Positions 33,729 to 55,464 of a DNA stretch of 64,000 nucleotides are shown one piece after another; within the stretch, counting starts at the first letter, position 1, and each line of letters starts with the position of its first letter. The stretch comes from Eledone cirrhosa. Its lineage: Eukaryota. A program made the translations under genes and the position numbers. The notes beneath the pieces were generated by a model, which was given only the letters and a program-made list of their open reading frames with translations, did no database searches and was not told the origin of the DNA. Location of the stretch: contig OZ024741.1 of assembly GCA_964016885.1 (NCBI GenBank), positions 326,554,001 to 326,618,000 on the forward strand. The letters run 5' to 3'.

Positions 33729-33764
<36 letters not shown>

Positions 33765-34016
33765 AATGAAAGGTATAGAAATTGTTTTAGCGAGAAGCTA
33801 ACAGTATTCTATAACATATATGCGACTATGTCGTCAAGAGGGAAAAATAGTTAACGTAAAATGTAGGAAAAATAATTCAAACTCATCTCAAAAGAGAATC
33901 ATGATACAAATTCATCCACAGAATTTAGTGAAATCCAGGGAAAAATCAATAGACCATTAACTCATGATAAAATAAGGTTTAAAATACTTATCCTTCAATT
34001 TGGAAAAACATCAAAT

Positions 34017-34096
34017 GCTCTGTATAGTCTTAAAGACTATTTCATGAAAAATTTCAGTGGAGATGGTCACGGTTGGATTTCAATCGTCAGCAGAGC
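34017..34096 (-). ncRNA. Type I hammerhead ribozyme (AUA triplet), copy 1
   Basis: Minus strand: GCTCTG-CTGACGA-T-TGAAA..TTTCA-T-GAAA-TAGTC tttaa GACTA-TA-CAGAGC. Confidence 0.88.
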
Positions 34097-34641
34097 TCAA
34101 CAGATAACCAGGGCCACCACAGAATTATAAGCCAAAAAGTGATTTCTAAAACTGGCTAATTCACCATCATGCGTGATTATGAAAAACGCACATGAGGAAA
34201 AACGGGGCTAGTGACGTCAGGATGAAAATGAATGTTTGTTTACAAGAAATAACAGTCAAATACATTCCGAAAAATAACTCTACAAAAGGAGTTCAGCAAA
34301 CAGCAATATTATCGCAGTTTTTATAAAAAAAACGGGATTAGTCACAGATAATTTAAGCACTCAAGGAAAAGAATCCGAGTATAATTATAAATGAAAGGTA
34401 TAGAAATTGTTTTAGCGAGAAGCTAACAGTATTCTATAACATATATGCGACTATGTCGTCAAGAAAGAACAATAGTTAACGTAAGATGTAGGAAAAATAA
34501 TTCAAACTCATCTCAAAAGAGAATCAGGATACAAATTCATCTACAGAATTTAGTGAAATCCAGGGAAAAATCAATAGACCCTTAACTCATGATAAAATGA
34601 AGTTTAAAATACTTATCCTTCAATTTGGAAAAACATCAAAT

Positions 34642-34721
34642 GCTCTGTATAGTCTTAAAGACTATTTCATGAAAACTTTCAGCGGAGATGGTCACGGTTG
34701 GATTTCAATCGTCAGCAGAGC
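34642..34721 (-). ncRNA. Type I hammerhead ribozyme (AUA triplet), copy 2
   Basis: Same core and stems as 34017-34096, offset exactly 625 bp; the two differences fall in the stem II insert. Confidence 0.88.
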
Positions 34722-34741
34722 TCAACAGATAACCAGGGCTC

Positions 34742-34824
<83 letters not shown>

Positions 34825-34851
34825 GATATATATATACATATATGTATATAT

Positions 34852-34940
<89 letters not shown>

Positions 34941-35156
34941 ATATACATATATATATATATATGTAAAGGATATATAAACCCATAGAGTAAATATTTATTA
35001 TTAGAGCAGATTAAAGTTTCAGCAAAGAATTTCCGCTTCCAACCTATTACTGGATCTTAGGTCCCGTATATGGATGAAAAAAGAAATTCTTCGCTTAAGC
35101 TATCAATCCTCTCTCTCTGTCTCCTTCTCTCCCTGTATATATATATATATATATGA

Positions 35157-35297: not shown

Positions 35298-35438
35298 ATA
35301 TATATATATATATATATGCAGAGGTTATATTTAATTTGTTGGGATTCAACAAGCTTAGAAATAGCTATCCAGGAAGCTCCGACCGTTACGGTTGTCTTTT
35401 TTCTGGGTATGTCAATATTTATTCATAAAACAAATCTG

Positions 35439-35504
35439 TATTTTATCTGATGATAGCGCACCATAATTTCCCTTGGTTGCCCTTGAAATATATATAATAA
35501 AATA
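35439..35504 (+). ncRNA. Minimal type I HHR (AUA triplet)
   Basis: TATTTTAT-CTGATGA-TAG..CTT-GAAA-TATATA-TA-ATAAAATA; same stem I as 30676. Confidence 0.75.
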
Positions 35505-35560
35505 AATATGGTTTTATAAATATAGTTTCCATTTATTAATATATTGTATATATATATACA

Positions 35561-36394
35561 ACATTCTCCAGCATGGACGCCAGTATAAAGTTCAGCATGG
35601 AACACCCCGATGACCGCGGATCCCTTTCCCTACTGGACTTCCAACTGAGGGTAACATCCACACCTGCTTCTATAAAAAAGCCGCCAGCAGGGACCTGTTC
35701 GTACATTTCAGATCGGCCCTCCCACTCGGTGCCAAGTTCGGATACATAAGGAACGAACTGGCACGTTTCCGGAACAAATGCACCGACGCTAGAGACCGAG
35801 ACACACACCACACATTTCCTGGAAGTACTCAAACTGAACGGATACACGACATCCACCACAAACCGTGCCAGAAAGAACAGAGGACACCACACCCGAGGCA
35901 CTAACACTTGCTTCCTGAAGCTCCCATACTTCAGTGAAGAAACAACAACAGCCATCCGCAGAGCCATCATACGAGAGGGACTAGATATCCAACTGGCCCA
36001 CTCAGGTCCTTCTCTACGCGGACAGCTAACCAAAAGACACTCCACCAGACATGACAACTGCTGCAGACTAGCCAACTGCCCCATCAAGGACACAGACCTA
36101 TGCTACCAGGCTTACGTCGTATACAGACTAGAGTGTGACAAATGCAACAACTTCTACGTAGGTAGCACCACCAGACCACTCCACATAAGAATAAAAGAAC
36201 ACCTCAATACTAACGCTTCCTCATTTAAGAAACACCTAGTTAAATGCAAAAACACCGACAAAACCATAACAGTTAGGATAGAAACTAAGGAAAGAAATCT
36301 CAGCAATCTTAGAATTAAGGAAGCCCTAATTATAGATAAAACACAACCACCAATCAATAATAGACTAGAATTCAACACCCAATTTATAACCTGA
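35561..36394 (+). pseudogene. Penelope-like element: RT C-terminus, Cys-rich linker and GIY-YIG endonuclease (5'-truncated, frameshifted)
   Basis: Hand translation: IKFSMEHP..LSLLDF, FYKK..FVHFRS, KLPYF, CCRLANCPIKDTDLC, VVYRLECDKCNNFYVGSTTRPLHIRIKEH, IKEALII..PPIN, stop at 36392-36394. Not in the supplied ORF track. Confidence 0.9.
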
Positions 36395-36769
36395 TAGGGC
36401 TTCTTGCCCCATATTTACACACCCCACACACACACACACTTACACCTCCACTTATTCTCTCTCACACATACACACACAAAACCAGTTCTAACACCAGATA
36501 ACACCTATCCCCCACATTTACGAATATACTTATCTTCTCACACTCACACACACACACTCACATACTTACACCTTCATGCATTATCCCACACACTTAAACA
36601 GGCATGTATATTAAAAAAAACCCCAAAAAACTAAACAAACCCCTTTTAAAGGGAGACTACTCTTTATCCATCTAATTTTAACTCTTTGACATTAGAGATA
36701 GAACAGATACTCTATACTATTTCCTGTCAGCATGGCTTGGCAAGATATTTAGAAGGCTGGTTTGAGACC

Positions 36770-36838
36770 TTTTTTCCCTCTGAAGAAGAGATATTATCTC
36801 GAAAATTAATGACATTTAAATAAATCTAAGGTAAAAGA
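36770..36838 (+). ncRNA. Decayed HHR in the PLE 3' pseudo-LTR
   Basis: TTTTCCCT-CTGAAGA-A-GAGAT..ATCTC-GAAA-ATT..AATC-TA-AGGTAAAA; stem III imperfect. Confidence 0.6.
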
Positions 36839-36925
36839 CGATTTGTCAACAATATCTTTTGCAATTGCATTCTTTTTTCTATGTCCATACCTGCATTGTT
36901 TTGGCTTTATTATACATATTCAAAC

Positions 36926-36983
<58 letters not shown>

Positions 36984-41610: not shown

Positions 41611-44600
41611 GTTATTGTTATTCCTTGAATCTCAGTCATTGATGTTGGTTAACTGGAAAGTCCGTTGGATTGAATATCAAGCCACTACCTGCAGCCTCAG
41701 ATATTCAGGACGTATCGGAGGGTTCTTGCCGTTCCAAGCAAGCATGCCTTTTGAAGCGTTCCAAAAAGCGTGAAGGGGCCGATTTTCTTTAACCATCCCT
41801 GGAAACCTTTGGAGATAGTCCCCAGTGCGCCTATGACAATCGGGATCACTTTGACTTCATGGCAGTTCCAAATCCTTTTCACCTCCCACTTTAGGTCCTG
41901 GTATCGGTTAATTTTCTCCCTCTCCTTCTCTTGCACTCTCGTGTCGAACGGGCAGGCCACATCCACAATCAGGCACGATCTTTTTTCTTTGTCCACAACC
42001 ACCAGGTCAGGTCTATTGTGTTCCAGTTTTTTGTCCGTCTGTATCCTAAAATCCCACAGCACCTTCACCTGACTGTTCTCCATCACCGCCTCTGGCCTAT
42101 GCTCATACCATTTCTCAGAATGTGGTAGATTGTTTACTTTGCACAGGTGCCAGTGGATCACCCTGCCCATCACATCGTGTCTCCAGCCCTTATAGTGGGT
42201 CTGGGCTAGGTGTTTACACTCGGACACAATGTGGGCCACAGTCTCCTCTCTCTCTCCACAGATCCTGCACAGTGGGCTAGCCTCCTCCTTGTAGATATGG
42301 TGCTTCAACCACTTCGTTTTGAGGGCCTGCTCCTGCGCAGCCATTAGCATTCCTTCTGTAGCCTTTTTGAGGTCTCCTCTTCTCAACCAGTTCCATGTTT
42401 GTGGATCTCTAAATTCAGTTTTCTCAAAGAAGGTACTATGAAGGGATTTTCCCTTAAGGCTGCTCTTCCTCCTTGATGTTATTTCCTCCTTGGATATCCC
42501 CTGGCCTACTGTCCCCTCCTTCAGTACAGCTCTGAGCATTGGCTCCTTACTATAGGTCACGTATTTGTATAGGTTGTTTTTTTCCATCTGAACACAGTCC
42601 TCTATGCTGATAAGACCTCTTCCACCCTCAGATCTCCTTAGGTAGAGTCTATCGACATCACTCCTCTTGTGGAACATGTTGTAGATAGTCAATAGCTTCC
42701 TAGTCTTCCTATCCATTTCTTTTTGTTTAGCAACATTCCATCTCAGAATTCCCGCACTGTACCTAATAATAGACACAGCTCGGGAATTTACTGCGCTTAT
42801 GGCATTTCTGCTGTTCAGATGTGACTTCAATACGCTCCTTACTCTCCGAATGTATTCAGTTCTTAACAATTCCTTCATTTTTTTGTTCTTTACGCCATCA
42901 GCCTCCAGAACGCCCAAATACTTGTATCCTTCCTCAGAGTCAATTTCCTTTATCATCTCACCTGTTGGTATCTGGATCCCGTTACTTCTGCTCAACCTAC
43001 CCCTCCTCGTCACAATGACTCCACATTTACCAATACCAAACTGCATACATATATCACTGCTGAAAATACGGACAGTGTCAACAAGCACATCCAACTCCTT
43101 CTCACTTTTCCCGAAGAGCTTAAGATCGTCCATGAAGAGGAGGTGATTGATGGTAAGCTCTCCCCTTCCCAACTTGTATCCTGCTCTCACTTTTCGCAGC
43201 ATAATGGTCAAGGGCATCAGGGCAAGGACAAACAACAGAGGGGACTGGCTATCTCACTGGAAGATACCTCTCTTGATCTTCACGCTTCCCAAGGATACTC
43301 CAGTTGATGTCAACTCTGTCTCCCAGGACCCCATACTCCTGCCCAGCAACTGTCTGATGTTATCTGCCACCCTGAAGATCTCCAGGCTTTTGGTGATCCA
43401 GGAATGAGGCACCATGTCAAATGCCTTTCTGTAGTCTATCCATCCCATGGCAAGATCAGTGTGTCTCCTCCTGCAATTCCCCATTACCATCTTATCAATA
43501 AGCAACTGGTCCTTTGTACCACGTGACTTCTTTCGGCATCCTTTCTGTTCGTCCGGTAACAAGTTGTTTGTGTGGAGGTGATGGTAGATTTCCTCAGACA
43601 CAATGCTCGTCAACAGTTTCCACATTACGGGCAGACATGTGATAGGTCTATAGTTGGTAACATCATTACCCTTGATTCGGTCTTTCATTATCAGAACTGT
43701 GGTACCTTTTGTCAACCACTCTGGCACCTCACCCGACACCAAGCAGTCATTGAACATGGCCGTCAGCTTCGGGTGGAGGGATGTTAAATGTTTAATCCAA
43801 TACCCCTGCACACCATCTGGGCCTGGTGATTTCCAGTTGGTTAGTTTTTTGGCTTGCCCCTTAAGAGTTTCAACTGTGATACTCAAATCAGTCTGTTGTT
43901 GTGCCTGCTCACCGATCTCCCTCTGTACTGTCTCAATCCACCCTGCCTGGGCATTGTGTCTAACATCCTGCTCCCATATTCCTCTCCAGAATGTTTTAGC
44001 TTGTTCCGCCCCAGGGATCAAGTCGTTGCCTCTTTCTTTCCCCTCAAGCTGTCCAAACAGCATCTTCTGGTTGTTGTCGAACATGCGGTTCTGTTTATAC
44101 TGACTGACTCTGTTCTCGTATCGCCTGATTTTGGCACTCTTTGCTACAATGCGTTGCTTCAATTCCTCTATGATAATATTTAGCTTTTTACTCCTAGTTT
44201 TGTATTTTATTTCCAGTCTATTTTTAGTGCCTATGTTTTTTAGTGTCCCATTCAGTAGTGACTCAAGCTTTCCTATGTCATCTCTCATTTCCCCGATTTG
44301 CCCACTCAGTCGCTTCTTCCACCACGGCTCTGCTCTTTCTTGTCTGTTGTTTCCTTTCGCTTTTATACCAAGTAGTTTCCTCACCGTATTTGCTGTTGCT
44401 TTGAGGATATTGTTGCACTGGTGAAGACTCCTCGCCTCAAGGTATGGGATGACTTTGTTTACCTTAGCTGTTGTTTCTTTTAACTTTTTCCTGTCTACAA
44501 ATCTTAGGTTCATAGGTCTCCCACTATCATTGTTCAACTCATCTACCACTAAATTTAGGATGTCAACCGAATCTTGTCCTAGCCCGTCAGCATTCATCTC

Positions 44601-45230
44601 CTCAGTGGCCGTATCTCTGTTCCAGATATTATTTATCTCAGTATTCAGATCATTGTCTGCTTCGGGTGGTTCCTCCGTTCTCAGGACCTCCTCACCTTCA
44701 TTTCCCGCCGGCTCGCTTGTCTGGCATACTACACCCGCCATCTCCAAGCCATTCTCTCTGCTCAGTTCCTCCAGTTCCAGCTCGCTTATCCACCCATTAG
44801 TTCTTATTACCCGAGCCTGCCCGGCCAATTTTTGTTCATCTAATTTAAATAAACCAATCTCGTTCCAGATGTTATGCATCCGTCTCCTGTAGCCCCTCTC
44901 CTTGGGGTTACTTTTCAGGTAGCATTGCATAACAGTTCTATTCAATTCTTTCGTCCAGTTGGTTCTGGCCCCTTTCCTTCTTCTTCTTCCTCCAACATCA
45001 GCAGTATTTGGTTGACAGTCGGGTTCCTGCTGCTGAGCCAGGGGGCACCTGTTGGGTGAGAGTCTGTCACATGACGTTCTAGTCTCCATTTCACCGTTAT
45101 TCGAACTGTTTATGTTCGATATTTAAACACTCTTATCGAGGATTGGCGAACGTATGTTTACATAGCCATCTGTGGATCCGCCATCACACTTGGCCCTTGT
45201 GTGGCATTATCACCACGCTGTATACGGACA
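41570..45230 (-). mobile_element. R4/Dong-like non-LTR retrotransposon, near full length, (TAA)n tail
   Basis: Single RT-RLE ORF; about 75-nt 3' UTR runs into (TAA)n; 5' boundary approximate. Confidence 0.9.
41697..45089 (-). pseudogene. RT + CCHC + restriction-like endonuclease ORF (about 1130 codons) with one in-frame stop
   Basis: NYRPITCL, IDYRKAFDMVPH, GIFQ*DS (TGA at 43254-43256), LFMDDLKL, CRIC..ETVAHIVSEC, RHD, NRPDLVVVD..IVDVACP..EKINRY. Confidence 0.95.
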
Positions 45231-46470: not shown

Positions 46471-46529
<59 letters not shown>

Positions 46530-46853
46530 GTTATTGTTATTCCTTGAATCTCAGTCATTGATGTTGGTTAACTGGAAAGTCCGTTGGATTGAATATCAAG
46601 CCACTACCTGCAGCCTCAGATATTCAGGACGTATCGGAGGGTTCTTGCTGTTCCAAGCAAGCATGCCTTTTGAAGCGTTCCAAAAAGCGTGAAGGGGCCG
46701 ATTTTCTTTAACCATCCCTGGAAACTTTTGGAGATAGTCCCCAGTGCGCCTATGACAATCGGGATCACTTTGACTTCATGGCAGTTCCAAATCCTTTTCA
46801 CCTCCCACTTTAGGTCCTGGTATCGGTTAATTTTCTCCCTCTCCTTCTCTTGC
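46471..46853 (-). mobile_element. 5'-truncated R4/Dong-like copy A
   Basis: Near-identical to the 3' end of the 41570 copy; (TAA)n both sides. Confidence 0.92.
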
Positions 46854-48083
46854 ATTATTATTATTATTATTATTATTGTTGTTATTCCCTGAATCTCAGT
46901 CATTGATGTTGGTTAACTGGAAAGTCCGTTGGATTGAATATCAAGCCACTACCTGCAGCCTCAGATATTCAGGACGTATCGGAGGGTTCTTGCTGTTCCA
47001 AGCAAGCATGCCTTTTGAAGCGTTCCAAAAAGCGTGAAGGGGCCGATTTTCTTTAACCATCCCTGGAAACTTTTGGAGATAGTCCCCAGTGCGCCTATGA
47101 TAATCGGGATCACTTTGACTTCATGGCAGTTCCAAATCCTTTTCACCTCCCACTTTAGGTCCTGGTATCGGTTAATTCTCTCCCTCTCCTTCTCTTGCAC
47201 TCTCGTGTCGAACGGGCAGGCCACATCCACAATCAGACACAATCTTTTTTCTTTGTCCACAACCACCAGGTCAGGTCTATTGTGTTCCAGTTTTTTGTCC
47301 GTCTGTATCCTAAAATCCCACAGCACCTTCACCTGATTGTTCTCCATCACCGCCTCTGGCCTATGCTCATACCATTTCTCAGAATGTGGTAAATTGTTTA
47401 CTTTGCATAGGTGCCAGTGGATCACCCTGCCCATCACATCGTGTCTCCAGCCCTTATAGTGGGTCTGGGCTAGGTGTTTACACTCGGACACAATGTGAGC
47501 CACAGTCTCCTCTCTCTCTCCACAGATCCTGCACAGTGGGCTAGCCTCCTCCTTGTAGATATGGTGCTTCAACCACTTCGTTTTGAGGGCCTGCTCCTGC
47601 GCAGCCATTAGCATTCCTTCTGTAGCCTTTTTGAGGTCTCCTCTTCTCAACCAGTTCCATGTCTGTGGATCTCTAAATTCAGTTTTCTCAAAGAAGGTAC
47701 TATGAAGGGATTTTCCCTTAAGGCTGCTCTTCCTCCTTGATGTTATTTCCTCCTTGGACATCCCCTGGCCTACTGTCCCCTCCTTCAGTACAGTTCTGAG
47801 CATTGGCTCCTTACTATAGGTCACGTATTTGTATAGGTTGTTTTTCTCCATCTGAACACAGTCCTCTATGCTGATAAGACCTCTTCCACCCTCAGATCTC
47901 CTTAGGTAGAGTCTATCGACATCACTCCTCTTGTGGAACATGTTGTAGATAGTCAATAGCTTCCTAGTCTTCCTATCCATTTCTTTTTGTTCAGCAACAT
48001 TCCATCTCAGAATTCCCGCACTGTACCTGATAATAGACACAGCTCGGGAATTTACTGCGCTTATGGCATTTCTGCTGTTCAGA

Positions 48084-48084
<1 letters not shown>
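46854..48084 (-). mobile_element. 5'-truncated R4/Dong-like copy B
   Basis: ORF 46961-48040 near-identical to the C-terminus of the main copy; (TAA)n both sides. Confidence 0.93.
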
Positions 48085-48120
<36 letters not shown>

Positions 48121-49914: not shown

Positions 49915-51890
49915 ATGGCTGAGCCACGCTCCAGCGATATGTCTGCTGTCGTGCGACAACGACGTAGAAGTAGAGAGGAGCGCTACAGCGAAATTAACAC
50001 AAATTGATAACACAAACACCACCACAAACAAAGTAAACAAAGACACTAATGATACCAATGAGAACTCTAATTTTGAAAAAAATGACACTAACAGCGACAA
50101 CGAAAATACAGATAACAAAGAAAAACAAACAAATGCAACAACAATATCAACACCACTAACATGAAAACAAATAGCGACAACACCAACAGCAACAATACCA
50201 ACTGCACCGAGAACAACGGTGGTAACAAAAACAACAATGATAACAGCGATAGTGCTAACAACAACACCAACAAGAACAACGACAACCACAACAACACCCC
50301 CAACGAAAATAAGAACACTTTCGTTGCGGCAGCAGCAAAAAAGAGGCCATTCTTCAACATGAACCTCTCAAACAAAGATGAAAAGTTGGCCCAGGCATGG
50401 AAGCTCATCAAGCAAGAGCAAAGCTGGGCCAACTTAACTGTCCCGGTAGAAGCTATTGAGGCAGTGGAGCGCAGAACGGTGCATTATAGATGCATCTCAG
50501 CACAAACCAAAAGGGAACCTTTAATCCCACAAGAAGATGTCGAAGTAGCGCTGAGGTGCATCAGAGAACACACCTAATACATAGAGAGGGGCAGACAGTA
50601 CGGCACCATTTCGGTGTTGTTCAAGTCAGAAGCCCTCGCTATGAAACACGCTATGAATCCTTGCAAAACCAGCAAGATCATAATGTACCCCTCCCACATG
50701 GGAAAAAGAACGGCCCGTCTCTGCATTCCCAGAATCGCACCAGGACTTGACATGTGGTGGCTTCTGGGATGTGTGATTGTGGAGGGGACGGATACCGTCC
50801 CTATAGAAGTGACCAGAACGGCCATAGAGGTCTGGTCCCGTGTTGACCTGGAGATCCTTCTCCATATCAGGCCCGAGAATGTGAAGACAATCCCGGACCA
50901 CATCCGCCTTCAGAATGGGACGGTCATTAACATTATGACCGAAGGCAAAAGGCCGCAGTGTTTTGTTTGTGGGGAAAAAACCCATTTGCGAGCCTTCTGC
51001 CCTCAACTGCTGAAAGAGGCAAGGGGTCGAAAGGCTCCACTGCTGCCGACGCCGGGGCGAGGAGCACAACCAACACCAGCACCATCAAAACCACCAACAA
51101 CAACACCAATAGAAAGACCACCACCAACATTGACCACCCAGGGGGGAAACGAGGAAACTGACAAATTCCCCCTCCCCACAAAAATACACACCAATAAAAC
51201 CATAAACATACATACAGACACACTTACAGACACAGACCCCTTATCTACCAGTAGTGAAGATAAGGGAAAACCCAAATCCCCCCAAATTCAAAAAAGGAAA
51301 TACAAAAAGAAAAAAAAAACTCAATAAAGCACAAAATCACCCACAATAAAAAACGCAGACACCACCCACGCAAACATCTCTCCAATAACACCAACATCAA
51401 CACCACCATCACCATCACCAGAATCCCCCAAACGCAAACAATCTAAACAGACGCAAGAACAAATATACACACAAACATCTGAAACCATAGACACCGCACT
51501 CACAACAAACACAGACACAACCGAAACAACACCACCAAAACCATCACCACCACTGCCACGCAAACAAATAAAATCGCACCAACAAAACATACAAAACTTC
51601 GTGCTCGTCAGGAGGGCCAACAAGGAACTGTTGGCCCTCGTAGCACGAAGTGAAAATTATACAAAAAGAGGGAAATTTTTAAATCAAGCACATTTCGCGT
51701 GCCTGAAGATTTGGTTCTGGTGCGAATGTCGATCGATTCATTCAAAGAAATACGAGACAGCTTTTCTCGGGACGTGGGAACACCGACCGTAAAACCACTT
51801 CAAAACTTTTAAAGGGGTTCCCAAAAGAAACACCACCAACTATGGAGGTCGAACAACCCGACCTTCACAAGAACCCGGAAGGTAAGTAAA
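49915..51890 (+). pseudogene. LINE ORF1 (Asn/Thr-rich, CCHC zinc knuckle), disrupted
   Basis: CFVCGEKTHLRAFC at 50959-51000; C-terminal MEVEQPDL matches MEIEQPDL of the other copy. Confidence 0.75.
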
Positions 51891-51920
51891 CCTTCCTCTC
51901 TCCCTTTTTAACCTGCCAAC

Positions 51921-54780
51921 ATGGCCGTATTAAGAGTAGGATATTTAAATGTTCGAGGCCTAGGATCGTCCTGGAAGCAGTGTCACCTGCTCAACGACCT
52001 CAGGTCTATAGAAATGGATGTAATTGCCGTCAGCAAGACCAGTATTTCCGACACGCGCGCACTAGCCCCCATTTCCGACGACTATCAGATCTTTGCATCT
52101 GTTAGCCGGCCGAGAATGGGAGGCGGGGTGGCAGTGCTGTTTAGGAAAGGCCTGGATCTCGAGGTAAGGTCGATCTTCCGGGACCCGGACGGGAAGTTGG
52201 TGGTCCTGGACGTGAACAATAACGAAGATGGTGCCTTTTGACTGGGGCCGTCTATGCTCCTACTAGGGCAGGACGGCCGGATTTCTTTAGACGCCTCGAA
52301 GCCTTTCTGGGTACGTCTCGCCCTTTACTGTTGGCGGGGGACTGGAACGGCATCTTAGACGCACACTGATACTGTGTGGGAGTATCTAATAGGAGCGGGG
52401 GTGCAAAAGCCTCAAGAACCTGATCAGCCAGTTCCAACTGTCTGACAGGTACCGACTAGATTTCCCTAATGCGCCAGTGTGGACCAGGGCTAACCGCATA
52501 TGGTCCTCTAGATCGTATATAGACAGGATATTCATTATGAAAATAGACAGAAATAGTGTAAGCTGTCCACGTTTTGAAACGGTCGCCTATTCAGATCCCA
52601 AGTTTGTGATCTGTATGTTCTACCTAGATAAGACGCGTAGGTTAGGACCTGGTTACTGGAAGCTAAACATGTCATTTCCGGCACGTAAGGCTTACAAGGA
52701 CCAGGTCAACAATTTAGTTAAGAAAAATTGACAGGGGCAGTCGTCAACAATAGATGGGGGGGGGGGGGGGTCTCTCAAAAGAGAGATTTGAGTAATGCAG
52801 ATAGAGTTTAGCAAAGAAGTAGCGTTAGAGAAAAATAGAAAGGAGGGGGAGTTGGTAGATAAGTTAGACGAAGCTATTGTTAGTGGCATTGCAACTGACG
52901 TGCTAGCGGCGAGAATGGCATTAGACCATTTCTTCAATGCGAAACACGAAGGGTGTATTGTCAGAGTTAAGGCGCGTGCTCTGAGAAACGAGGGAACCAA
53001 AGCTGTTCGATGGGCCCGCGTGGCAGAGGCGCAGCGTGGTAATAAAACCATGATTCGGTCTTTGACGGACCGAGACGGACACGAGCTGAGCGATTCCAAG
53101 CGGATGTGTGAGGCCTTTCGCCAACATTTTGCTCGGTTGTTCGGGGGAAGTGGCGGGTCAGAGATGGTGGCGGACTTCAGTCCCTACCTCGATGGTTTGC
53201 CGCAACTCTCGACGGCTGACGCTGGGCACTGCGAAAGGCCAATTACTTCAGCCGAGATTCAGGATACCCTTGTCGGCTGCATGAGCCGCAAGTCACCCGG
53301 TTTGGATGGTCTGCCCTACGCGCTTTACGTAAATATGCCAGACTTGTTCTCCAATCTCTTCGAAGCCCTCTACTGCAACTGGCAGCAAAACGGGAGTATT
53401 CCCAGTTCTGTGAGCCGGGCGTAGTGGTGCTGATAATGAAAGACGAGAACAAGAGGGACACATTAGACAATTTCAGGCCCATAACTCTGCTCAACACAGA
53501 GTTTAAGATTTTGGCCAGGGTGTTAGCGAAGAGGTTGGTGCTTGTCGTCGGGGATTTGGTTGGGGAGGCGCAAACTTGCGTAATCCCAACCAGGTCCATA
53601 CCCGACAACCTCCACCTAATGCAATACATCATAGAGAGGGGAGGGTGTAAACCTGGCTTCGGTGGGGCTCTGATCAATTTAGATCAATCGAAAGCATTCG
53701 ATAGGGTCGACCATCGGTACCTGGAGGCTGTCTTCAAGGCGGCTGGCTTCGGCCCCGTCTTCAGAAGCTGGATCGCTGCAATGCACAGCGGCACCTGCTC
53801 GATGGTCAAAATGAATTGCTACCTCTCGGGACCGTTTCAGGTCTCCCGATCGGTCCATCAAGGGTGCCCTCCCGCCTCCCTTCTGTACGTATTGACTCTT
53901 GAACTTTTACTGCGGAAGCTGGAGCTGTTGCAGGGCATCCCGCTCGAACGGGGATGCGGAAAGGCTGTGTCGGCTTATGCAGGCGACATCACCGTGATGG
54001 TGTCGGACACCTCAGAAATCGAGGTGGTCGGCAACTTATTGGAGGAATATGAAAGGTTGACGGGTGCAAAACTTAACCCGGAAAAGTCGGTGGGCTTGCA
54101 ACTCGGCACCTGGAGAGGCAAGTCCATGCCGTCCAACGGCGTCGTTAGGCGCTGGACAGACGGACCGGTAAAGTTGCTAGGGGTTTGGTTCGGGCCAGAC
54201 CTCCAGGTGGATAAGAATTGGGACGGGGTGACGGGCAGGTATGCCAGTCTCACCCAGAAATGGGCTGGGATGAAGCTATCACTGAAAGGTCGGGGGGAGG
54301 TGGCGAACGCGTACATCGCATCCGTCATCTACTACCGTCTGACTGTCGTCCCCTGCCCCCGTTCGCGCCTCGCCATCTTGGAGCGGCTCCTCTTCAAATT
54401 CTTGTGGAGGGGTCAGGTTCCGCTGGTGAGGCGCTCCATCTGCTGCCAGCACCCTCTACGTGGAGGGCTTGGCATGCCGTGGCTAATGATGCGCAGGCAC
54501 GTGCTGAGGCTGCGGCATCTCCAGATATTCTGCCTAAACGGTGCACAGGTGTGGTCGCCGTTTGTCAGACGGGCCTTTCCGCAGCTCGTTTCTTTGACTG
54601 AACTGCAGTCCTGGGTCAAGAAGAGACCGCGACTGGGTGACTGGCATCTGGAATGTTGCCAGGCACTCACTGCCCTCTACCAGGCGGGCAATACGGTCAG
54701 TGGAACTTCCACTCTCGAATTCTATAGAGGATTAGTGGTGGGCAAGTGTGACGACGCACTCGGAGAGGCTCTGGGAGTCA
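51921..54780 (+). pseudogene. LINE ORF2 APE + RT, disrupted
   Basis: VGYLNVRGL, YIDRIF, NFRPITLLNTEFKI, LDQSKAFDRVDH, QGCP, AYAGD. Confidence 0.93.
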
Positions 54781-55464
54781 ACGGTCAAAAATACAGATAT
54801 AAATACATATAATATAGTCTATCAAAGTTCTATAGTTGCACATCTGCAACATCGTCAGTGTTGCTATTATGTTTCCTCCCGTTTCATTATATGCCTACGC
54901 CATCTTTATTTAGTCTGTTTATTTATTTATTTATTTGTTTATTTTTCTTTATTTTTTAATTTTTAATTTTAATTTTAATTTTTTTTATTGTTTTATTATT
55001 TTAATTTTTTTATTTTTTTTATTTATTTTATTTTTTTTATTTTTTTATTTTTTATTATTTTTTTTATTTTTTTGTCTTCTCTGCACATGCGTTTGCGTAT
55101 AGTGTTTTGTTTGATGTGTGTTCATGTTTGGGTTACTGTGTCTTGGTTAATGTGTTCTATCTTAGTTTACTAGTGTGTGTTTATATGTGTTTGTGTGTTT
55201 ATATGTGTTTGTGTGTTTATATGTGTTTGTTGTTATTGTGCTTGTGTATGTATTTATTTATTTATTTATACCTCTCTTAGTAAATAAATAAATAAATAGA
55301 CAAATAAATAAATAAACAGACTGAATAAAGATGGCGTAGGCATAAAATGCAACGAGAGGAAACATAATAGCACCACTGACGATGTTGCAGATGTGCAACG
55401 AAAGAATTTGATAGACTATATATATGTATTTGTGTCTATATTGTATCTGTATTTTTGACCGTTG
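54779..55464. mobile_element. Long-TIR fold-back element
   Basis: CAACGGTCAAAAATACAGATA.. about 170-bp arm inverted at about 55290-55464; T-rich low-complexity centre. Confidence 0.75.

Follow-up and report, generated by a model that had tools for sequence, protein, structure and literature searches.

The question raised by this locus is what is represented by two hammerhead motifs lying 625 nt apart on the minus strand of Eledone cirrhosa DNA (contig OZ024741.1), and from what template and by which enzyme the sequence carrying them was copied. The whole stretch analysed, hereafter the window, comprises 64,000 nt. On balance, the insertion is probably one 5′-truncated copy of a dispersed, non-coding, hammerhead-bearing non-LTR retrozyme with tandem 625-nt units, likely a non-autonomous parasite of Penelope-like elements (PLEs) of the Hydra clade and likely copied from a circular RNA.

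Organization of the insertion

Two direct repeats of 351 nt, offset by 625 nt and identical at 339/351 positions, were flanked on both sides by (TA)n runs, inside which a target-site duplication was unreadable (Table 1). Each repeat held one type I motif. The two ribozymes reported 625 nt apart by the first-pass annotation were thereby borne out, and the same minus-strand positions were obtained for both predicted cuts and for the 625-nt monomer between them. The predicted monomer folded better than its shuffled versions (z -2.8, 20/20 shuffles beaten). Its coding capacity is negligible, as had been noted earlier: the longest stop-free frames of the circularised monomer were 41 aa (sense) and 84 aa (antisense), and a Pfam search with an 80-aa antisense stretch returned no match.

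The window copy has the first ribozyme at its very start. Missing from it is the preceding portion of the unit, including the family-conserved TGACGTCA palindrome there, which we take to resemble a CRE/ATF site. This copy would thus need read-through transcription, and longer arrays are the better candidates for donors. That it is a ready template for a circular RNA, as first annotated, is uncertain from its sequence.

Table 1. Features of the retrozyme insertion in the window
Feature	Position	Strand	Basis or remark
Entire insertion (about 1.57 retrozyme units of 625 nt)	33765..34743	-	3′ end, fixed in the family, at 33765; 5′ end, truncated, near 34743
(TA)n target run, 3′ end of element	33731..33764	.	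sequence
(TA)n run, 5′ end of element	34744..34962	.	sequence
351-nt repeat, 5′ copy, pseudo-LTR-like	34390..34740	-	direct-repeat comparison
351-nt repeat, 3′ copy	33765..34115	-	direct-repeat comparison
Type I hammerhead 1	34642..34721	-	predicted cut 34648/34647
Type I hammerhead 2	34017..34096	-	predicted cut 34023/34022
Predicted pseudoknot arm, ribozyme 1	34723..34734	-	10 bp possible with loop II (34690-34700); covariation not significant
Predicted pseudoknot arm, ribozyme 2	34098..34109	-	10 bp possible with loop II (34065-34075); prediction
Predicted 625-nt monomer, 33% G+C	34023..34647	-	both predicted cuts
Unit junction, AU-rich patch directly after family 3′ end	34381..34392	-	putative site of priming by nicked (TA)n
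Junction hairpin, relaxed form of Hydra-PLE start motif	34359..34380	-	shuffle test
Second hairpin, matching the strict Hydra-PLE start motif RCTCC-N(4-8)-THGAGY	34277..34292	-	shuffle test
TGACGTCA palindrome, family-conserved, candidate internal promoter element	34212..34219	.	conservation in family

Ribozyme motif

In both repeats, the minus strand read as a 6-bp stem I, CUGACGA, a stem II with a 24-nt loop, GAAA, and a 6-bp hairpin stem III, with the predicted cut after UA. Cores and stems had been described as identical; this holds for the cores and for stems I and III, but each ribozyme carries one private change in stem II or its loop, namely at 34683 in loop II of the 5′ copy and at 34051 in the top pair of stem II of the 3′ copy (an allele present in 1/56 insertions). 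A U.U mismatch opens stem II in both. No hammerhead model of Rfam was matched at the gathering and E-value thresholds, probably owing to the long loop II. When up to one mismatch was allowed, a 31-nt ribozyme pattern was matched 476 times in the genome and its reversed control not at all, indicating that the motif is not due to chance.

The 93-nt segment of ribozyme plus 5′ arm contained only 1/34 lineage polymorphic sites, located at the free N7 position (P 0.026), and a scan found 0/440 other windows as poor in such sites. In a copy of 85% identity, the first two positions of stem II were replaced on both sides by two other standard pairs. The scarcity of polymorphic sites and the two-sided change in stem II suggest that the ribozyme, whose core is intact and conserved across lineages, is under selection.

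A predicted 10-bp pseudoknot can form between loop II and the 12 nt preceding stem I. The five helices (stems plus pseudoknot) were 97.8% paired on 36/39 distinct segments, and a covariation test of ribozyme and pseudoknot on these segments was not significant (70/500 shuffles as high). When folded free of the pseudoknot, the active form lay about 6 kcal/mol above the minimum, with a probability of at most 0.08 for stem I and 0 for stem II. The ribozyme is therefore weak by prediction, its active fold not being favoured by the model without the pseudoknot. Weak cleavage, 22% in 1 h as a monomer, is reported for an axolotl ribozyme whose stem II opens with the same U.U (PMC7229834), and 8/9 Xenopus dimers showed no cleavage in vitro (10.64898/2026.07.22.740005).

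A dispersed family with one 3′ end

When the 3.0-Gb genome was searched with the unit, 3468 candidate places were returned; the 38 that were scored showed 89-100% identity. A 36-nt 3′-end pattern had 292 exact matches against none for its reversed control. Arrays reached about 7.5 units, the units being 627-629 nt long (period 628 nt). Among loci chosen regardless of their flanks, all 3′ ends in view except that of L027 stopped at the same base and were followed by (TA)n. The count of copies and ends proposed in the first-pass annotation thus yielded hundreds of dispersed copies with one fixed 3′ end and variable 5′ ends. A single-locus duplication or a satellite with a chance ribozyme-like motif, for which the lack of an Rfam match might be cited, is refuted by these dispersed copies and by the complete core with three stems; the duplication that had been named beforehand as the adverse outcome was not what the candidate places, exact 3′ ends and ribozyme matches revealed.

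Insertion lengths were taken from the first 100 listed 3′-end matches, which gave 94 rows, the other 6 being internal hits of arrays already in the set. Removal of 7 further rows as duplicates or internal hits left 87 insertions, including L211, which was retained and is an internal hit with its true 3′ end out of view. Forty-eight were at most 70 nt, 10 measured 71-250 nt, and 29 passed the cut site. None of the 87 ended within 8 nt of the cut site, with about 1 expected at a uniform stop rate, and 5/87 were at least 970 nt long and hence contain two whole ribozymes each. The 5′ ends are otherwise random, except that most copies of at most 70 nt end at an internal ATATA patch; a microsatellite lay directly before 106/124 of the 5′ ends. 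Mini-copies of 58 nt ending at this patch made up about half of the 3′-end matches, several of them in one TA run at L145.

The footprint described for PLEs (PMC8557442) combines a fixed 3′ end with 5′ truncation, partial tandems and a microsatellite target; the retrozyme family showed it in all four respects, the target being (TA)n. The 1.57-unit layout resembles a pair of pLTRs, and the element might accordingly be taken for no more than a terminal repeat (pLTR) left by truncation of an autonomous PLE. This reading is largely refuted and very improbable: the unit's own 3′ end stands upstream of each repeat, up to about 7.5 times over, and 0/87 end-selected insertions ran on into other element sequence or an ORF, which marks the element as non-autonomous rather than a stray pLTR. 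An ORF for reverse transcriptase plus GIY-YIG upstream of the terminal repeat was absent from the long retrozyme copies.

The locus had also been called a young retrozyme. The family is indeed recent, but the window copy is not among its youngest members, its repeats differing by 3.1-3.4%, whereas the mean for 29 insertions is 2.1%. Identical unit pairs were found in 0/29 multi-unit insertions, and no sign of current activity was seen. Unit variants with an internal deletion occurred at L135, L163 and L204 (e.g. 551-nt spacing). At L252, another hammerhead with a long stem II was present in two copies 459 nt apart (4699 and 5158, plus strand), probably representing a second retrozyme family.

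Relation to known retrozymes

The designation as a retrozyme was supported by an element that is multi-copy, tandem and non-coding with one type I hammerhead per unit. From its sequence, it would be classed as a non-LTR retrozyme as defined by Cervera & de la Pena 2020 (PMC7229834) and, following Li, Clavereau & Pollet 2026 (10.64898/2026.07.22.740005), as a non-autonomous derivative of PLEs. With the metazoan non-LTR retrozymes of PMC7229834 it shares tandem non-coding units with one type I hammerhead each, in dimers to multimers, a G+C content below 45% (33% here), and PLEs in the same genome, and with axolotl HHR_Amex2 the U.U at the base of stem II. It differs from what is described there in the 24-nt loop of stem II with its predicted pseudoknot, in the strict (TA)n target with no readable duplication, and in circles that are here predicted only. 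The unit had been thought longer than those of animals. At 625 nt it lies above the 150-450 bp of metazoan non-LTR retrozyme units (PMC7229834), but the claim fails against retrozyme consensus lengths of 51-972 bp, with a mean of 650 bp in ray-finned fish (10.64898/2026.07.22.740005).

By the definition of Li, Clavereau & Pollet, copies with two full ribozymes qualify as active retrozymes. In that work, extended similarity to pLTRs is given for about 21/57 Xenopus retrozyme families, and tandems are ascribed to local satellite expansion; in the present family, no extended pLTR similarity was found in the PLE loci examined, the Hydra clade is linked to it by a short hairpin, and the ends of the arrays suggest that tandems arose during insertion. 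The (TA)n target, 5′ truncation and partial tandems are shared with Hydra-clade PLEs (Craig et al. 2021, PMC8557442), for which a canonical hammerhead near the 3′ end is described; unlike these elements as characterized there, the retrozyme has no ORF, forms whole-unit tandems of up to about 7.5 units, and lacks an inverted 5′ copy in nearly all insertions examined. Two repeats of about 350 nt with a ribozyme each, and a monomer in the 600-1000-nt size class, recall the plant LTR retrozymes. The plant type was ruled out by topology (type I here versus their type III) and by variable 5′ ends, the ends here being permuted and truncated instead of fixed LTRs, with no 4-bp duplication.

The kind of element is already known, and 625 nt is no record length for it. 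In the literature consulted, neither a non-autonomous element of the Hydra clade nor a description of the present family was found, and Repbase, Dfam or supplements may already hold the repeat. New here are the Hydra start hairpin in the unit, the template copy statistics, and the predicted loop-II pseudoknot.

Template of the insertions

The 3′ end of the insertions sits 258 nt downstream of the cut site and is therefore not an end of the cleaved monomer. At unit junctions of tandem copies, TTTA- or TATA- came next in 41/45 junction hits; by sequence, these could pair with nicked (TA)n, and junctions of the same kind were observed in PLE families of this genome. A cleaved linear monomer primed at the junction would stop all copies at 258 nt, as 0/29 do, so that a simple template of this sort is excluded.

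Units were compared over 73 insertions, with 2 loci removed (one segmental duplicate and one double insertion). The last two units of the 29 multi-unit insertions differed at 246/11691 positions (2.1%) as against 5.7% between insertions, and discordance at 34 common polymorphic sites was 25/530 (4.7%) within versus 6438/14016 (45.9%) between insertions. In 16/29 multi-unit insertions, alleles private to the insertion were present in all its units. In a separate pass, 179/229 within-insertion differences were private. This likeness and the shared private alleles indicate that each insertion is one unit sequence copied repeatedly, which a circular RNA would explain most simply, although conversion or unequal crossing-over could also make arrays homogeneous. 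In the 8-unit array of L095, units 1 and 4 differed by 1 and units 2 and 5 by 0, a period of three that may reflect either an internal duplication or a trimeric template.

Alternatively, the same non-autonomous element may have been copied from a linear tandem transcript, uncleaved or partly cleaved, or from a monomer re-entered by template jumping, circles being a by-product. The predicted weakness of the ribozyme would suit such a template, multimeric RNAs are described in axolotl (PMC7229834), and an uncleaved multimer accounts for read-through of the cut site as well as a circle does, since it likewise gives no stops there. Masters of this type would, however, accumulate and transmit differences between units, yet most within-insertion differences were private; lineage alleles were concordant over many lineage splits, and the ribozyme was conserved across lineages. 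We regard the linear template as rather doubtful and retain the circle as the preferred reading.

Hydra-clade PLEs as candidate helper

PLEs associated with (TA)n were abundant in this genome, comprising a family with C-terminal GIY-YIG, several Neptune-type families, and Hydra-clade families. The largest Hydra-clade family had 64,982 candidates, with intact 713-aa ORFs bearing RWR, DKT and CxCx5C motifs, features that are given for this clade together with a preference for (TA)n (PMC8557442). In Hydra families a small hairpin lies between the 3′-end junction and the start codon. Its strict form was found at most 100 nt before the ORF in 30/50 Hydra loci (many belonging to one family and some 5′-truncated), its relaxed form in 7/11 hand-picked Hydra upstream regions, and the strict form in 0/4 other PLE sequences. 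The 16-nt start hairpin is shared by the retrozyme unit, where the strict match is the only one in the window on either strand and is conserved in 36-38/38 insertions per base; such a match arose in 16/5000 shuffles of the unit. A relaxed junction hairpin within the first 20 nt arose in 2/3000 shuffles, with a pattern that was widened after the unit had been seen. Among the Hydra 3′ UTR ribozymes of this genome, stem II is mismatched at its base or long, or stem III is a hairpin; Hydra PLEs resemble the retrozyme in these ribozyme features as well as in the start hairpin. Judged on these sequence likenesses, a Hydra-clade PLE is the likely helper of the retrozyme.

At L019, a retrozyme dimer lay within an inverted Hydra structure and was joined directly to a Hydra 3′ UTR, with no TA between them. 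This single case fits a template switch, and a target deletion explains it as well. It was the only direct Hydra fusion among 124 flanks (1/124), Hydra ends near 4 others being merely neighbours in a TA run.

Extended DNA similarity of the unit to an autonomous element was not found in the PLE loci examined. At least five Hydra families were rejected as direct parent, having the hairpin alone in common with the unit. A 25-nt likeness to the 3′ end at L298 belongs to another small repeat and not to the adjacent Hydra ORF, and the Hydra ORFs downstream of retrozyme copies at L096 and L097 are separate insertions. Neptune families showed no extended similarity. The neighbouring PLE, a 5′-truncated copy with a GIY-YIG end at 35560-36927 (+) of the window (ORF 35750-36394), lies 1 kb away between (TA)n runs; it was likewise rejected as parent, having no DNA similarity and a different, minimal ribozyme. 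Its family comprises about 26,000 candidates with 905-aa ORFs, and by eye a minimal hammerhead-like core with a palindromic stem III was seen in its 3′ UTR near 36780.

The helper might instead be a Neptune-type or other PLE with C-terminal endonuclease, the likeness to the Hydra hairpin being an old relic or chance. The Neptune-type and a third PLE type likewise target (TA)n here, several Neptune families and the abundant neighbouring PLE also ending in it, and one Neptune family opens its stem II with a U.U and matches the unit at 21/23 nt. In the sequences searched, however, these PLEs lack the start hairpin, and they have either no ribozyme or a minimal one whose stem III is palindromic, so that this helper appears unlikely and one of the Hydra clade is preferred.

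Other observations on hammerheads and neighbouring sequence

About 20 distinct type I hammerhead families were observed in 1.1 Mb of loci, many with a long stem II that is mismatched at its base. A variant core, CAGAAGA, is present in the hammerhead of the largest Hydra family. The Neptune-type PLE at L215, L216 and L217 has a long N-terminal extension (a 1215-aa frame in L099) and a 3′ UTR with more than 1 kb of TA/TG microsatellite, in which a scan found no hammerhead. In the window, a third type I hammerhead (35425-35547, plus strand; core at about 35447) lies in a short 3′-end fragment, and the same 3′ end also follows Hydra-clade ORFs in L164 and L299; the sequence at about 35318-35360 resembles another Hydra 3′ end in opposite orientation. 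A 345-nt tandem of two copies (46509-47199) and a degenerate (TA)n array of 6.8 kb (12767-19555) were also present. Broken frames at 3530-7183 (-) resemble a Helitron Rep/helicase, and those at 26923-29869 (-), 50116-54812 (+), and 41697-45122 plus 46961-48085 (-) we take to be degenerate non-LTR retrotransposon frames of endonuclease and reverse transcriptase types.

Proposed course of mobilization

A donor array would be transcribed through two ribozymes, and slow cleavage, helped by the loop-II pseudoknot, would release the monomer, to be closed into a circle by a host ligase; RtcB is given this role for retrozyme circles (PMC7229834). The Hydra reverse transcriptase-endonuclease may then dock on the junction hairpin and nick (TA)n, and the nicked DNA would pair with the AU-rich patch, which lies 258 nt downstream of the cut site, and serve as primer. 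Priming at this internal patch would set the 3′ end within the RNA rather than at one of its termini. The enzyme would circle the template for anything from a fraction of a turn to at least 7 turns, after which the 5′ end would be joined to TA via microhomology. Taken as a whole, with hairpin docking, priming at the internal AU patch and rolling, the view of the family as a record of a Hydra-clade Penelope enzyme copying a ribozyme-made circle is a tentative one, less probable than not.

The family bears on the enzyme that moves animal retrozymes, on the circle as template, and on the formation of PLE tandems. With it come a named candidate helper, whose intact ORFs are numerous in this genome, a shared 16-nt hairpin that can be mutated, and a defined priming site. 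If the proposed course is true, the hairpin would be the recognition signal of the Hydra clade, and the helper together with the 625-nt circle would provide a two-part test system for retrozyme mobilization and for the origin of PLE tandem repeats.
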